This document shows, in pieces, positions 2,573 through 32,075 of a stretch of DNA of 32,075 bases. Each line of letters begins with the position of its first letter. Position 1 is the first letter of the stretch. This stretch comes from a virus. The translations under genes were made by a program, and so were the position numbers. The stretch lies in UHGV virus genome UHGV-2009075; one strand, 5' to 3'. The notes under the pieces were generated by a model. The model was not told the origin of the DNA and made no database searches. It saw only the letters and a list, made by a program, of their open reading frames with translations.

Positions 2573-3655
2573 TTAGAACTGGTAAACCATACCTACAGCA
2601 ACGATATCATCGGTAGCAACGCCAGATGCTTTCGTGAAATCGCTCTTATCAATCAGGTTGATTTTGTAGTCAACAAAAGTGGACATATTTTTGTTGAAGT
2701 AATAGGTTGCACCTACATCAACATATTCAACCAGGTCCTGATCACCCCAAACACCCAAGTCTTTTCCTTTAGAATGCAGGTAAGCAACGGATGGACGCAG
2801 GCCGAAGTCGAACTGATATTGTGCAACAGCTTCGAAGTTTTGTGCTTTGTTGGCAATATGGTTATTACCAAAAACAGTCATGTTCTGGGTTTCAGAATAG
2901 GTGGTGGCCAGATAGATGTTGTTCGCATCATATTTCAGACCAGCTGCCCATACTTCAGCATTTTGACCAGAAGCATTCAGACCGTTGTTACCGTAGATAA
3001 CCTGATTATTAGTGCGATCAGATTTAGCATAGGTTGCACCCACGCCGAATCCTTCATACTCATAAGTAGTTGAGAAACCGAAACCATCGCCATTAGCTTC
3101 AGTTACTTCATTTCGGTCATTTTTGCCCTGATACTGAGCTGCAAAGTTCAGGCCATCAACCAGACCAAAGAAGTCGTTGTTACGATAAGTTGCAACACCT
3201 GTGGTGCGACCAGTCATGAATACATCTGTTTGGGTCCAGGTATCGCCACCGAATTCTGGCAGAACGTCGGTCCATGCACCAATATCGTATGCTACACCGT
3301 AGTTACGGCCATAATCGATGGAGCCGTAGTCACCGAATTTCAGGCCAGCGAAGGCAAGACGGGTTTTATCTTTGGAGGAACCTTGAGATTCAGCGCGGTT
3401 GCCTTTGAATTCATATTCCCACTGACCGAAACCAGTCAGTTGATCGTTGATTTGGGTTTCACCTTTGAAGCCAAGACGGGCATAAGTAGTATCACCATCA
3501 TCTGCATCATTAGAGGAGAAGTAGTGCTTAGCATTAACTTTCCCGTACAGATCCAGCTTGTTACTGTCTTTATTATAAATTTCAGCTGCCTGAGCAGACA
3601 TCGCCATCAGTACTGATGCAGCTACAGCAGAAATTGCCACTGTTAATTTTTTCAT
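2573..3655 (-). CDS. nmpC: Outer-membrane general porin, OmpC/OmpF superfamily, NmpC/Lc (phage-encoded) type, with signal peptide
   Basis: 360-aa product with signal peptide [30 protein letters not shown] and C-terminal beta-barrel signature ...VAVGMVYQF; ATG confirmed at 3653-3655 on the reverse strand. Closely resembles remembered NmpC. Confidence 0.85.
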
Positions 3656-5457: not shown

Positions 5458-5601
5458 TGAATTTCACAGCGCATCTCACGCGCATATTACATCACCCGAG
5501 CCTTTCAGAAAGTTGAGCCTGAGAACTGCCGTATATGGTGGCGACCATCTCGGGGCGGCTTTTCTGTGAGACAGGCTCACTTTCTAAAAGGTAAAGACGC
5601 T

Positions 5602-6090
5602 ATGAACCAATTAGAAGAAAAGCTTCAAAGAATGATTTCCTTATACAAGGAAGATAACTGCCAAAAAGTTCCTGAAAACATCGCAGAGTTAATGGAATTG
5701 GCAAGTGAATTTTCTGGCATGCTTAAGTCGTCAGGTGTTCGGTCAGCGTTCTTTGTTGAAATGCTGATGCACGGCGGACTTATGGCAACAATGAGACGTG
5801 TAATGGAAGACCAGAGAAAAGAACCTCCTCAGGTATACGTTTTGTCATCGAAGAAAACTGGGCTAACCAAAATTGGGTATTCATCCAACATTCCACAACG
5901 CATCAAATCGCTTGGCAACTCTGGACCAGACTGCTTGAAGCTTGAGTGCCTGATCCCTGGTGGAAGAGAAACTGAAAACATGCTTCATCGCAAATTTGCC
6001 GCAAAGAGAAAGCACGGTGAATGGTTCGCCCTGTCCAAGGATGACATTGAGGGATTGAAATCTGTAGCGATTACTTCTGATGGCTATTAA
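5602..6090 (+). CDS. Protein with C-terminal T5orf172 (MUG113-like, GIY-YIG superfamily) domain; function unknown, AT-rich moron
   Basis: C-terminal segment VYVLSSKKTGLTKIGYSSNIPQRIKSLGNSGP ... ECLIPGGRETENMLHRKFAAKRKHGEWFAL fits my recollection of the T5orf172 motif pattern. ATG 5602 preferred over the track's GTG 5566; start not certain. Domain assignment unverified. Confidence 0.6.
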   Translation: MNQLEEKLQRMISLYKEDNCQKVPENIAELMELASEFSGMLKSSGVRSAFFVEMLMHGGLMATMRRVMEDQRKEPPQVYVLSSKKTGLTKIGYSSNIPQRIKSLGNSGPDCLKLECLIPGGRETENMLHRKFAAKRKHGEWFALSKDDIEGLKSVAITSDGY

Positions 6091-27298: not shown

Positions 27299-30200
27299 AT
27301 GGCAGTAAAGATTTCAGGTGTACTGAAAGACGGCACAGGAAAACCGGTACAGAACTGCACAATCCAGCTGAAAGCAAAACGTAACAGTACCACGGTGGTG
27401 GTAAACACGCTGGCCTCAGAAAATCCGGATGAAGCCGGGCGTTACAGCATGGACGTTGAGTACGGTCAGTACAGCGTTATTCTGTTGGTGGAAGGATTCC
27501 CGCCGTCACATGCCGGGACCATCACCGTGTATGAAGATTCTCAACCTGGTACGCTGAATGATTTTCTCGGTGCCATGACGGAGGATGATGCCCGTCCGGA
27601 GGCTCTGCGCCGTTTTGAACTGATGGTGGAAGAGGTGGTGCGTAACGCGTCCGCGGTGGCACAGAACACGGCAGCCGCGAAGAAGTCAGCCGGCGATGCC
27701 GGCACATCTGCCCGTGAGGCGGCAACCCATGCGACTGATGCTGCAGGCTCAGCACGCGCAGCCAGCACGTCAGCAGGACAGGCCGCGTCGTCGGCTCAGT
27801 CAGCGTCTTCCAGCGCAGGAACGGCATCAACAAAGGCCACTGAAGCGGAAAAAAGTGCTGCCGCTGCAGAGTCCTCAAAAAGCGCGGCGGCCACCAGTGC
27901 CGGTGCGGCGAAAAAGTCAGAAACGAATGCGGCAGCGTCACAACAATCAGCAGCCACTTCTGCATCCACCGCGACCACGAAAGCGTCAGAAGCTGCCACC
28001 TCAGCCCGGGATGCGGCGGCCTCAAAAGAGGCAGCGAAATCATCAGAAACGAACGCATCCTCGAGCGCCAGTAGCGCAGCTTCCTCGGCAACGGCGGCAG
28101 GAAATTCCGCGAAGGCGGCAAAAACGTCCGAGACGAACGCCAGGTCTTCTGAGACGGCAGCGGGACAGAGCGCCTCAGCTGCGGCAGGCTCAAAAACAGC
28201 GGCTGCGTCGTCTGCCAGTGCCGCGTCAACAAGTGCCGGGCAGGCCTCAGCCAGTGCCACCGCCGCCGGAAAATCGGCAGAAAGTGCCGCATCGTCTGCT
28301 TCAACAGCCACAACGAAGGCTGGCGAAGCCACTGAACAGGCCAGCGCAGCAGCGAGGTCAGCTTCCGCAGCGAAGACATCCGAAACGAACGCGAAAGCGT
28401 CGGAAACCCGTGCAGAATCCTCAAAAACGGCTGCCGCATCGTCCGCCAGTTCGGCGGCGTCATCGGCCTCATCGGCGTCTGCTTCAAAAGATGAGGCGAC
28501 CAGACAGGCATCAGCAGCGAAAGGCAGCGCCACGACGGCATCCACGAAAGCAACAGAGGCGGCAGGCAGTGCGACGGCAGCATCTCAGAGCAAAACTACT
28601 GCTGAATCCGCTGCGACCCGTGCGGAAGCTGCTGCTGATCGTGCTGAAGAGATTGCCGGTGCAGTTGCGATGGAAGACGCAAGCCTTACAACTAAAGGTG
28701 TTGTGAAACTTAGCAGTGCTGTTGATAGCACCAGTGAATCGCTGGCCGCAACGCCAAAAGCAGTTAAAGCAGCCAATGACAATGCGAATAGCAGGGTGCC
28801 ATCTAACCGAAAAGTTAACGGAAAAGCACTGACTGCGGATATAACATTAACGCCGAAAGATATTGGTACTTTAAATTCAGTAACGATGTCTTTCTCTGGC
28901 GGGGCTGGGTGGTTCAAACTGGCTACGGTTACCATGCCACAAGCGAGTTCCATCGTTTACATCGCATTGATTGGTGGCGCTGGTTACAACGTCGGTTCCC
29001 CACATCAGGCAGGCATTTCAGAACTGGTTCTACGAGCAGGCAATGGAAACCCCAAAGGAATTACCGGGGCTTTGTGGAAGCGTACAGCCGTCGGATTAAC
29101 GAATTTCGCCTGGATCAACACATCCGGCGATACATATGATATTTACGTTGAGATTGGCAATTATGCGACGAGTGTAAATATCCATTGGGATTGTACTGCA
29201 AATGCGTCAGTTTCTGTTTATACCTCGCCAACATATTCAGCGAGTAAGCCTTCCAGCGTTACCTATGGTGTTGTTTATACGATGTATAGCTCACATCAGA
29301 AACCTACACCATCAGATATTGGAGCACTGCCAACAACCGGAGGAACAGTTTCAGGTCCGTTGTCTGTTACAGGTGGATTAACTGGTTCATTGAATGGTAA
29401 TGCAAGTACAGCCACGAAATTGCAGACGGCAAGATCTATCGGTGGAGTTGTTTTCGACGGTTCTGCAAATATTAACCTTCCAGGTGTAAACACTACGGGT
29501 AATCAGAACACCACTGGTAATGCTGCAACTGCTACAAAACTTCAGACTGCAAGAAAAATATCCGGTGTTCCATTTGATGGTTCTACTGATATCACTTTAA
29601 CCGCCGCGCATGTGGCTGCTTTTGCCAGAAGGGCAACGGATACATATGCCGATGCGGATGGTGGCGTTCCCTGGAATGCCGAATCAGGCGCTTACAATGT
29701 CACCCGCTCTGGCGACACCTATATTCTGGTTAACTTCTATACCGGAGTCGGAAGTTGCCGGACCTTGCAGATGAAGGCACATTACAGAAATGGAGGTCTG
29801 TTCTACCGTTCCTCAAGAGATGGCTATGGTTTTGAGGAAGACTGGGCAGAAGTTTATACCTCGAAAAATCTTCCACCAGAAAGCTACCCAGTCGGCGCAC
29901 CAATCCCGTGGCCATCAGATACCGTTCCGTCTGGTTATGCCCTGATGCAGGGGCAGACTTTTGACAAATCTGCATACCCGAAACTTGCAGCCGCTTATCC
30001 GTCAGGCGTGATCCCTGATATGCGTGGCTGGACGATTAAGGGCAAGCCCGCCAGTGGTCGGGCCGTATTGTCTCAGGAACAGGACGGCATTAAATCACAC
30101 ACCCACAGCGCCAGCGTATCCAGTACGGATTTGGGGACGAAAACCACATCGTCGTTTGATTACGGCACTAAATCCACGAATAACACTGGTGCGCATACCC

Positions 30201-30526
30201 ATAGTGTTAGCGGTACGGCTGCTTCAGCCGGTGCACATACCCATTCGATGACATTTGTTTCAGGTGGTTCCAGTGGTGCTCCGGGAAGTGGATCACCTGA
30301 TTATTCTAAATACAGTGTTAACACTTCTTCTGCAGGCGCTCATACGCACTCTGTATCGGGTACTGCTGCAAGCGCAGGTGCACACGCACATACTGTCGGT
30401 ATTGGTGCTCATACGCACTCCGTTGCGATTGGTTCACATGGACATACCATCACCGTTAACGCTGCTGGTAACGCGGAAAACACCGTCAAAAACATCGCAT
30501 TTAACTATATTGTGAGGCTTGCATAA
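27299..30526 (+). CDS. stf: Side tail fibre protein Stf, extended mosaic form (about 1075 aa)
   Basis: N-terminus [37 protein letters not shown] ... and C-terminus ...[31 protein letters not shown] match lambda Stf; long Ala/Ser/Thr-rich repeat region and an inserted central block with two TATKLQTAR-type fibre repeats. ATG at 27299 (track start 27293 is GTG). Confidence 0.9.
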
Positions 30527-31110
30527 TGGCATTCAGAATGAGTGAACAACCACGGACCATAAAAATTTATAATCTGCTGGCCGGAACTAATGAATTTATT
30601 GGTGAAGGTGACGCATATATTCCGCCTCATACAGGTCTGCCAGCAAACAGTACCGATATTGCACCGCCAGATATTCCGGCAGGCTTCGTGGCTGTTTTCA
30701 ACAGTGATGAGGCATCGTGGCATCTCGTTGAAGATCATCGGGGTAAAACGGTTTATGACGTGGCTTCCGGCGACGCGTTATTTATTTCTGAACTCGGTCC
30801 GTTACCGGAAAATGTTACCTGGTTATCGCCGGAAGGGGAGTTTCAGAAGTGGAACGGCACAGCCTGGGTGAAGGATACGGAAGCAGAAAAACTGTTCCGG
30901 ATCCGGGAGGCGGAAGAAACAAAAAACAACCTGATGCAGGTAGTCAGTGAGCATATTGCGCCGCTTCAGGATGCTGCAGATCTGGAAATTGCAACGGAGG
31001 AAGAAATCTCATTGCTGGAAGCCTGGAAAAAATATCGGGTGTTGCTGAACCGTGTTGATACATCAACTGCACCTGATATTGAGTGGCCTACGAACCCTGT
31101 CAGGGAGTAA
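30526..31110 (+). CDS. tfa: Tail fibre assembly chaperone Tfa
   Basis: 194-aa product [59 protein letters not shown] ... as lambda Tfa; ATG overlaps the stf stop. Confidence 0.9.
30947..31026 (+). repeat. Direct repeat copy 1 (tfa 3' segment); copy 2 at 31996-32075, about 88% identical over about 80 bp
   Basis: gagcatattgcgccgcttcaggatgctgcagatctggaaattgcaacggaggaagaaatctcattgctggaagcctgg versus gagtatattgcgccactgcaggatgctgtagatctggaaatcgcaacggaggaagaaagatcgttgctggaagcctga, aligned by eye. Confidence 0.8.
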
Positions 31111-31164
31111 TCATTGGGATTATGCCGCAGCACGTCTTAAGCAAGAACGCGCTGCGGTTGGATG

Positions 31165-31833
31165 CTATTTTTTCCCTGAAGCGGAAAACATTACTACAGT
31201 ACCTTGAACCTTGGTTTTAACATTCTCGAAATGCTCTGAGAGTATATGTGTTAAGCCTTCTTCGGAATCTTTTGTGTTTGAAAAGATGCCTTTCTGATTG
31301 TAAATGCGCATCAGTTTTTGACCGAAGCTATTGTGCACAACTCCATCGCCAAGAATTGTGGCTCCGTATAGAGTTCCATCGTCAGTTAAGGCCTGCGCCG
31401 CATTGCGTATTACACAGCTTTTTGTAGATATATTTCCAGGCAGGCAGTGAAGAAGGTAAAACATGGAAATGGAATCAAATTGACCATGTAACGCCGCGGG
31501 ATAAGGTTCAAAAACATCATGGCTAATTTTATGTTTAATTTTTGATTCCCCAGCCCTTGTAGATGCCGCGTTCAGGCTAGCTTCGTTCAAATCCATTAAA
31601 GATATCAGACTACTCTCAGGTACGTGAGTAAGGTAAAACCCAGTTCCAACACCAATATCCAGATGGTTGTTACCTAAATGTTCCAGAAAGTGTGGAAGAA
31701 GGTGTTCCTTTGTAGGACATCCCCATGCAAGCCGATTTGATACTCCCAAAACCCACCAGTCATAAAGCTTTAGGGTAAGTGGTGTGTAAATTTTAGCCCC
31801 ATCATCTGTGTTTTTTTTCATTAATTTCACCAT
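31165..31833 (-). CDS. Class I SAM-dependent methyltransferase (Rossmann fold), substrate unknown; AT-rich moron convergent with tfa
   Basis: Motif I LDIGVGTGFY, acidic post-strand residue (LISLMDLNE) and motif III-like FDSISMFYLLHCLP. No DNA-methyltransferase motifs (no DPPY, no PCQ/ENV). Two possible ATGs (31833 and 31821, the latter with a GGTGA SD). Confidence 0.75.
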   Translation of the reverse strand: MVKLMKKNTDDGAKIYTPLTLKLYDWWVLGVSNRLAWGCPTKEHLLPHFLEHLGNNHLDIGVGTGFYLTHVPESSLISLMDLNEASLNAASTRAGESKIKHKISHDVFEPYPAALHGQFDSISMFYLLHCLPGNISTKSCVIRNAAQALTDDGTLYGATILGDGVVHNSFGQKLMRIYNQKGIFSNTKDSEEGLTHILSEHFENVKTKVQGTVVMFSASGKK

Positions 31834-31889
31834 GTTATAGTTTTATTTGTGAATTAAATCAATTATGGCAATGAATTACAAGGGGTTAA

Positions 31890-32075
31890 ATGCTGCCGCA
31901 GCATAGCGATATTGAAATAGCCTGGTATGCTTCAATACAGCAGGAGCCGAATAGCTGGAAGACCGTCACCACACAGTTCTACATCCAGGAATTCAGTGAG
32001 TATATTGCGCCACTGCAGGATGCTGTAGATCTGGAAATCGCAACGGAGGAAGAAAGATCGTTGCTGGAAGCCTGA
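31890..32075 (+). CDS. Small ORF whose C-terminus repeats the Tfa C-terminal segment; second tfa-like gene or remnant, reaches the window edge
   Basis: ATG at 31890 preceded by AAGGGG; product ends ...[26 protein letters not shown], paralleling Tfa ...[30 protein letters not shown]. In-frame TGA falls on the last three bases of the window, so completeness is uncertain. Confidence 0.45.
   Translation: MLPQHSDIEIAWYASIQQEPNSWKTVTTQFYIQEFSEYIAPLQDAVDLEIATEEERSLLEA

Follow-up and report, generated by a model that had tools for sequence, protein, structure and literature searches.

The right end of the viral genome UHGV-2009075 poses a question about the history of a tail fibre module. In this sequence of 32,075 nucleotides (nt), called the window below, the 3′ part of the tail fibre assembly gene tfa recurs at the very end as the 3′ part of a different, small open reading frame (ORF), and between the two copies lies a methyltransferase gene on the opposite strand. 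Is the repeated segment the footprint left by the arrival of the methyltransferase gene, or did it arise otherwise and become a site of exchange? A preliminary description, made from the sequence alone, had viewed the locus as the product of modular exchange through recombination between tfa-like 3′ ends, with the methyltransferase carried as cargo. We favour, with a probability of about 0.8 for the account as a whole, an explanation in which a prophage boundary of the DLP12 type acquired an imported cassette, an illegitimate fusion produced the small ORF (tfaX), the resulting repeats came to coincide with sites of exchange, and the methyltransferase (YbcY) is a moron-type enzyme acting on a small molecule or a lipid.

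The tfaD-ybcY-tfaX junction

Between positions 30400 and 32075 the window differs from the chromosome of Escherichia coli STEC309 by 1 mismatch in 1,676 nt (99.9% identity). Because of this match, the chromosome (L001) was taken as the extension of the window, and coordinates past the window's end are positions of that chromosome mapped onto the window numbering. Extended to the right in this way, the second tfa-like ORF turned out to be an interrupted tfaX gene devoid of the Tfa N-terminus, followed by an AT-rich spacer and then by appY, ompT, envY, ybcH and nfrA. The tfaX-appY spacer (L001 9752-10296) measures 556 nt and has a guanine-plus-cytosine (GC) content of 25%; that of appY is 32%.

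The cryptic prophage DLP12 of Escherichia coli K-12 MG1655 has the same genes in the same order, on the same strands and with the same junctions: tfaD (b0561), ybcY (b0562), tfaX (b0563), appY and ompT. Nucleotide identity to the window is 99.2% from position 30672 onward, and K-12 shares the TGA codon in tfaX, the AT-rich spacer and the presence of appY downstream. As the K-12 layout is the same, the feature in the window is the long-annotated tfaD-ybcY-tfaX junction. The two loci differ in that ybcY is a pseudogene in K-12 and an intact 222-codon ORF in the window, and in that DLP12 has lost most of its late genes and the 5′ part of tfaD, whereas the late region of the window is complete from Nu1 to tfa. 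These matches identify the region as the place where, in a lambda-like prophage at the DLP12 site of E. coli, the tail fibre operon gives way to accessory DNA at the right end; the locus lies upstream of appY-ompT-envY. Such an arrangement has long been annotated and is very common in E. coli prophages, and there is nothing new in it.

Origin of tfaX and of the direct repeat

Inside the window the repeat finder pairs positions 30934-31025 with 31983-32074 (92 nt, 88% identity, far above chance), a repeat slightly longer than the one of about 80 bp originally described. With the STEC309 extension it grows to 157 nt (30934-31090 versus 31983-32139), 132 of which are identical (84%). The differences between the copies are mostly synonymous; the ratio of nonsynonymous to synonymous substitution rates (dN/dS) is 0.15 and dS is 0.58. 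The second copy therefore derives from a separate, once-functional tfa allele and not from a decayed duplication.

The small ORF at 31890-32075 that carries the second copy, as the preliminary description had noticed, is real and corresponds to K-12 tfaX. In alignments, its first approximately 31 codons match a 79-amino-acid (aa) ORF (MLPQHSDIEIAWYASIQQEPNSWKTVTTQ...) that starts, divergently, in the DNA upstream of the methyltransferase gene in Citrobacter freundii; the remainder matches tfa from about codon 139 onward. The PHROG matches split tfaX likewise, phrog_3893 covering residues 3-37 and tfa families covering residues 28-61. The ORF ends with a TGA at the position of the tfa Trp codon TGG, behind which the tfa-like frame runs on to '...DIEWLIQP*', and in STEC309 the stretch is labelled by PGAP as a tail-fibre-assembly pseudogene ('internal stop; missing N-terminus'). 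The upstream gene at 30526-31110 has everything expected of a tail fibre assembly protein: an intact ORF, a Caudo_TAP match over profile positions 1-130 of 131, and a tail fibre neighbour, stf, whose stop codon it overlaps by 1 base. None of this applies to tfaX, where an unrelated N-terminus is joined to Caudo_TAP positions 74-105 and the frame is cut short by the TGA. We read tfaX as evidently a chimera of two truncated genes, joined by an illegitimate fusion, and probably without a function of its own.

The Citrobacter contigs also help to delimit the incoming DNA. Because their homology to the window covers 31153-31976 (Table 1), the imported unit is estimated at approximately 824 nt. Its left limit is consistent with the point at which homology to lambda stops (31159), and the junction lies 43-49 nt past tfa. 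There is no tfa near the Citrobacter cassette, in keeping with the notion of the methyltransferase as cargo. An informative intermediate is found in phage Ayreon, which has the same left junction as the window and retains 46 nt more of the 79-aa ORF, unfused to tfa; the cassette therefore already followed tfa when the fusion giving rise to tfaX took place. Ayreon (L101 2494-2888) keeps both ends of the cassette and has the methyltransferase body (window 31201-31859) deleted. This internal deletion is an independent event, and an annotated 63-aa 'hypothetical protein' reads across the scar.

These comparisons show an order of events. The foreign 824-nt cassette lies at the above distance after tfa. 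The 79-aa ORF was joined, near its codon 31, to a second tfa allele near codon 139, through a microhomology of approximately 10 nt (31983-31992) common to both sequences, and this fusion created the 157-nt direct repeats. The TGG-to-TGA change struck the chimeric gene after the fusion, and the repeats coincide with sites of module exchange.

Recombination at the repeats

A synthetic empty-site query, composed of the 5′ part of tfa, the 3′ part of tfaX and the downstream spacer, gave single-piece matches of 926 nt in several genomes. The 462 genomes matched by this query include insert-bearing ones, in which two pieces were joined, and the number is not a count of methyltransferase-less alleles. 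In the three strains examined, SFE8, EM18-18-42 and WGI31CT, stf is followed by a single tfa, the AT-rich spacer, appY and ompT, and the methyltransferase gene is missing. In EM18-18-42 and WGI31CT the left part of tfa is tfaD of the PhiR26_1 type (2-4 mismatches in about 290 nt) and the right part is tfaX plus spacer (0 mismatches over 600 nt). The junction falls within a 40-nt block that is identical in both parents (32016-32055 in the coordinates of copy 2), and in both genes the TGA is an internal stop. The tfa gene of SFE8, an intact gene of 191 aa, is 100% identical to that of PhiR68_2 up to offset +82 and of the tfaX type afterwards. When repeats recombine with one another, junctions are expected to differ while the outer flanks stay the same, as is seen here. 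Such recombination could be an intramolecular deletion or the replacement of the segment by the tail fibre module of another phage. Phages with the same 79-aa-ORF::tfa fusion still have TGG in the remnant, so that the simplest source of the TGA is a change in the remnant, from which it was carried into the hybrid genes; this origin favours deletion. Two further candidates for empty sites, ev099 and PhiR42_1, were rejected: they have a tfaD-type tfa 3′ end and unrelated downstream DNA, and the second piece of the match was a cross-match of the repeat.

Active phages provide a second view of the same process. The inducible lambdoid coliphages ev243, 2G7b, PhiR26_1, PhiR29, PhiR30, PhiR49_1, PhiR68_2, Kati and Turner carry the same methyltransferase (99-100% aa identity) and the same fusion, and differ in their left and right partners: some have just a 120-nt left tfa remnant, others a TGG-bearing tfa 3′ allele followed by an alpha/beta hydrolase gene. 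The left tfa fragment begins at 30990 in ev243, 2G7b and PhiR49_1, and 31088 is the point of divergence of several phage tfa alleles. The right copy of ev243 and PhiR26_1 changes allele after 32068 (32068/9), keeps the TGG and is followed by the hydrolase gene, not by appY. In PhiR68_2, pin and ynaE lie between tfa and the cassette. As judged from these alignments, the repeats mark recombination sites, with breakpoints of phage mosaics inside them or at their edge. Of the mechanism put forward in the preliminary description, exchange through tfa-like 3′ ends is thus seen in the three strains and in the phage breakpoints; the part that fails is the origin of the right-hand repeat, which came from an illegitimate fusion.

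The YbcY methyltransferase

Four Pfam families match the product of the 222-codon ORF above their gathering cutoffs: Methyltransf_12 (37.6 versus 30), Methyltransf_23 (28.8 versus 27), Methyltransf_25 (27.7 versus 27) and Methyltransf_11 (24.6 versus 21.2). Translation probably starts at Met5, since this residue is invariant in 41 homologues and positions 1-218 of the PHROG profile correspond to residues 5-222; most homologues are 218 aa long, and a Shine-Dalgarno-like GGTG precedes the codon. The residues invariant in the same 41 proteins include YDWW (24-27), the D59-G61-G63-G65 motif for binding of S-adenosylmethionine (SAM), D81, H105, D120 and YLLHCL (126-131). Motif I (D59/G61/G63/G65) together with D81, the acidic residue closing strand 2, is what a class I SAM-binding protein should have, and the AlphaFold2 model, with a mean local confidence (pLDDT) of 90 and a predicted template modelling score (pTM) of 0.87, shows the seven-stranded fold of that class. 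The gene is under purifying selection (dN/dS 0.11-0.21).

A Foldseek search of the PDB placed at the top a bacterial phosphatidylethanolamine N-methyltransferase, juvenile-hormone acid methyltransferase (JHAMT), phosphoethanolamine methyltransferases and polyketide C-methyltransferases. YbcY may be likened to class I enzymes acting on small molecules or lipids such as MM_2633 (3dtn), BelI (9fce), RebM (3bus) and the phosphatidylethanolamine N-methyltransferase 8ys9, to which it is 11-21% identical. No structural neighbour stands out, and therefore no substrate can be transferred to YbcY. Searches by sequence agree with this picture: NCBIfam gave sub-threshold matches alone (CpaM and RquA, about 17 bits versus cutoffs of 175-180), the PDB gave marginal matches to JHAMT and UbiG (expect value, E, about 1e-3), and PHROGs places the protein in a family of unknown function. 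In the literature, ybcY and tfaX turned up just in listings of promoter islands, in data from genomic SELEX (systematic evolution of ligands by exponential enrichment) and in mentions of genomic context; the search yielded no study of function. Nor did these searches reveal a close relative that has been characterised. We infer from fold and family matches that YbcY is probably a cytoplasmic small-molecule or lipid methyltransferase and not a DNA methyltransferase. On the class of the enzyme and on its lack of DNA-methyltransferase character, the preliminary description was right.

Distribution and composition of the methyltransferase gene

The gene has a GC content of 0.408 (0.359 at third codon positions, GC3), compared with 0.482 (GC3 0.451) for tfa, 0.532 for stf and 0.529 for the whole window. 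At ≥95% nt identity it was detected in 3832 of the 5426 complete E. coli genomes (71%), with as many as four copies in a single genome; 1495 genomes contain the tfa-methyltransferase-tfaX stretch in full. In the phage collection, 57 records match the tfa region and 15 the methyltransferase (99-100% aa identity), all 15 from Escherichia lambdoid phages. Fourteen of these cover the gene over its full length, and the fifteenth is a 1.7-kb fragment record. The gene is absent from lambda, HK629, ev099 and mEp460. Presence in some phages, absence from the corresponding place in close relatives and a composition unlike that of the neighbouring genes are traits of a moron, and ybcY shows these three. 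The suspicion of lower GC and of cargo status was thus borne out; the gene is not a core gene of ordinary composition, nor did the identity of the repeats drop on alignment to a level that would speak against a relationship.

The wider taxonomic survey used GTDB, with one genome per species. Fragments of tfa or of the 79-aa ORF lie beside the gene only in Escherichia and Shigella copies and in two obviously contaminated metagenome-assembled genomes (MAGs). Short contigs of Firmicutes MAGs filed as 'Bacillus sp.' and 'Planococcaceae' (L022 and L031) match the methyltransferase and tfaX of E. coli with 100% identity and almost certainly represent binning contamination. Relatives with 79-90% aa identity occur in Citrobacter and Salmonella, in accessory regions with DinI, CdiI, PerC, an autotransporter and a phage ClpP. 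More distant relatives (50-75% identity) are stand-alone chromosomal genes without tfa in Enterobacter, Klebsiella, Yersinia, Salmonella, Erwinia, Proteus, Pasteurellaceae, Pseudomonas and others; those at 50-68% identity are spread over the Gammaproteobacteria. The chromosomal homologues examined in Salmonella and Enterobacter are not in operons, and their neighbours suggest no function.

Expression signals

Being antisense to the late operon, ybcY cannot belong to the late transcript. A candidate sigma-70 promoter (TTAACC-16-CATAAT with an upstream TG) lies on the appropriate strand between ybcY and tfaX. The scan for promoters and terminators yielded counts not above the shuffled expectation, and no canonical terminator was found inside the cassette. 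The promoter printed for K-12 ybcY (TTGATT-17-TATAAC, 31863-31835) would start transcription inside or at the four-codon extension 31821-31833. Genomic SELEX in K-12 detected binding of the RpoD holoenzyme and of H-NS in the ybcY<>tfaX spacer (PMC3946193), and the tfaX-appY region has been described as an H-NS-bound 'promoter island' (PMC3661553; PMC4469952), for which divergent transcription was reported in K-12. Such binding fits a silenced, horizontally acquired gene. Taken together, these data suggest that the methyltransferase gene is a moron-type gene, probably read leftward from its own sigma-70 promoter in the H-NS-bound spacer, independently of the late operon.

Alternative explanations

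The simplest alternative is that the cassette came in by homologous recombination, Campbell-like or unequal, between two tfa 3′ ends, the repeats being the footprint of insertion. The direct repeats do bracket the insert exactly, and taking one repeat-plus-insert unit out of the window yields the methyltransferase-less alleles. Homology cannot easily explain, however, why the right junction lies outside tfa homology, a truncated 79-aa ORF being joined to mid-tfa, why the left junction lies 43-49 nt past the end of tfa, or why the cassettes of Ayreon and Citrobacter have a longer or complete 79-aa ORF with no fused tfa. With the copies being distinct alleles at dS 0.58, we regard this route as quite unlikely. 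A more serious contender holds that the alleles of SFE8, EM18-18-42 and WGI31CT represent the ancestral empty site from which the window is derived, so that the repeats mediated no deletion. A recipient with a full tfa, a tfaX-type 3′ end and the appY spacer must once have existed, and the three strains show exactly such a layout. Their tfa genes, though, split cleanly into a tfaD-type left and a tfaX right part at junctions that differ by strain; over the 5′ 408 nt they match the window tfaD at 96-99% identity, at the 3′ end at just 84%. Moreover, the full-length genes of EM18-18-42 and WGI31CT have the TGA, for which the remnant is the simplest source. The ancestral status of these alleles deserves to be kept in mind as a minority option, less probable than the formation of hybrids by recombination at the repeats.

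Other proposals assign a role to the repeated element or to the enzyme. One is that tfaX is a working small protein, or that the repeat is a gene for the IS009 small RNA of Rfam. Its annotation as a protein in K-12, the existence of a PHROG family for it (phrog_2341), the stop-less 101-aa version in active phages and the IS009 match of 220 bits on copy 1 all agree with this proposal, which is nevertheless very improbable given the chimeric make-up of the gene, its polymorphic stop (TGA/TGG), the pseudogene call by PGAP and the partial Caudo_TAP match. As for the RNA, the IS009 match lies in frame inside tfa, where the differences between the copies are mostly synonymous; the tfaX copy (L001 9514-9717) scores 108.9 bits, under the gathering score of 117; and a study of enterohaemorrhagic E. 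coli put IS009 aside as located within genes (PMC5331693). The match thus seems to be an annotation overlap, with the family modelling tfa coding sequence and not a free-standing RNA; no evidence of a separate IS009 RNA was found at the tfa or the tfaX copy. It is still harder to see in YbcY a DNA methyltransferase or an anti-restriction enzyme protecting phage DNA. Orphan DNA methyltransferases are frequent in phages, and PADLOC returned one weak match (mad2, E 0.0033); no DNA methyltransferase family matched in Pfam, NCBIfam or PADLOC, and none is among the top structural neighbours. Close to negligible is the idea that tfaX is a relic of an invertible segment for tail fibre switching of the Mu G, P1 C or e14 P type: the copies are direct and not inverted, the window lacks a recombinase as well as an alternative stf 3′ segment, and its inverted repeats amount to one weak, non-significant pair (74% complementary, at an unrelated position); the sole encouragement is the pin-type serine recombinase between tfa and the methyltransferase gene in PhiR68_2.

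Several points count against the account we favour, that of an imported cassette, an illegitimate fusion and later exchange at the repeats. The methyltransferase-less alleles could in principle predate the window arrangement, or reflect replacement by an incoming phage and not an intramolecular deletion. The junction of SFE8 falls in just 2 nt of identity between the parental alleles, and the true parent may differ. Support for the methyltransferase promoter consists of a consensus match not above chance and of in vitro SELEX in K-12. The structural neighbours of YbcY are functionally mixed at their low level of identity. Lastly, ybcY is dispensable in K-12, as follows from its being a pseudogene there.

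Seen in this light, an apparent oddity of the raw sequence turns out to be how DLP12-type prophages normally end on the right, a finding of little import beyond housekeeping. The analysis explains the odd 'tfaX' gene of K-12 as a chimera of two truncated genes and offers a worked example of how illegitimate joins make patches of homology that later drive module exchange among lambdoid phages. YbcY itself represents a widespread and uncharacterised methyltransferase family. A speculative and rather unlikely extension would have YbcY as a retained lysogenic-conversion enzyme (it is intact, ≥95% identical in approximately 70% of complete genomes and under purifying selection) that methylates a host metabolite or membrane lipid and confers a fitness or phage-resistance phenotype once H-NS silencing is lifted, the tfaX remnant then persisting because of its use as a landing pad by incoming lambdoid phages that swap tail fibre modules and keep or drop the cargo.

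Features of the region

The features discussed here are collected in Table 1. The stable hairpin in the gap where tfa and the methyltransferase gene converge is assigned to the tfa module because it lies inside the segment shared with lambda; it is no canonical intrinsic terminator, as its T-run is not adjacent to the stem. The centre of stf (27600-28700; 58-66% GC) encodes a long low-complexity stretch rich in Ala, Ser and Thr, which gives rise to long spurious ORFs in other frames or on the opposite strand, such as 27522-28583 (minus strand, 353 aa). Near the end of the gene, at 30188-30423, a 20-nt unit occurs four times and encodes a His-rich GAHTHS motif (Pfam Phage_fiber repeat).

At the other end of the window, positions 1-615 begin inside an ORF for an IS3-type transposase (rve integrase core). 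An intact porin gene of 360 aa occupies 2573-3655 on the minus strand, which we take to be the place of the IS5-disrupted nmpC of K-12. A 174-aa ORF with T5orf172/MUG113 (GIY-YIG-like) domains (5566-6090, plus strand) lies between the lysis genes and a DUF1398 gene, presumably at roughly the place of borD in K-12 DLP12.

Table 1. Coordinates of features at the right end of the UHGV-2009075 window
Feature	Position	Strand	Basis and remarks
stf, side tail fibre gene, 1077 aa	27293-30526	+	Pfam phage_tail_N, Collar, Phage_fiber; prophage tail fibre annotation in STEC309; upstream of tfa
tfa, full-length tail fibre assembly gene, 194 aa, tfaD/lambda type	30526-31110	+	Pfam Caudo_TAP, E 9e-44
Rfam RF02111 'IS009' match inside tfa coding sequence	30869-31067	+	220 bits versus gathering score 117; full model; repeat copy 1 plus 65 nt upstream
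Direct repeat, copy 1	30934-31090	+	Repeat finder and alignment; tfa codons 137-188, in frame with tfa
Predicted stable hairpin between tfa and methyltransferase genes	31124-31157		Centroid energy -20.5 (+) / -25 (-) kcal/mol; z-scores -2.5 / -3.65
Imported cassette: methyltransferase gene plus 143 nt upstream, including 5′ part of divergent 79-aa ORF	31153-31976	-	91.4% nt identity over 825 nt to Citrobacter freundii contigs L013-L015
ybcY-type class I SAM-dependent methyltransferase, 222-aa ORF	31165-31833	-	Pfam; probable start 31821, giving 218 aa
Candidate sigma-70 promoter	31862-31889	-	Consensus scan; number of sites not above chance
tfaX ORF, 61 aa	31890-32075	+	K-12 tfaX b0563; about 31 codons of 79-aa ORF plus tfa remnant; window ends at its stop
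Direct repeat, copy 2, tfaX-type tfa 3′ end	31983-32075	+	Cut by window end; 64 nt more, to 32139 in extended coordinates

Comparison with lambda and its morons

Lambda orf-194 is 93% identical to the window tfa at the nucleotide level, with homology running to 31159 (tfa plus 49 nt) before the sequences diverge. In terms of the stf-tfa/b region of lambda, the methyltransferase gene occupies the place where the leftward-transcribed, non-essential genes of that phage begin; lambda has neither the methyltransferase gene nor a second tfa fragment. In its low GC content, its patchy distribution and its candidate promoter of its own, ybcY resembles the lambdoid 'morons' lom and bor.

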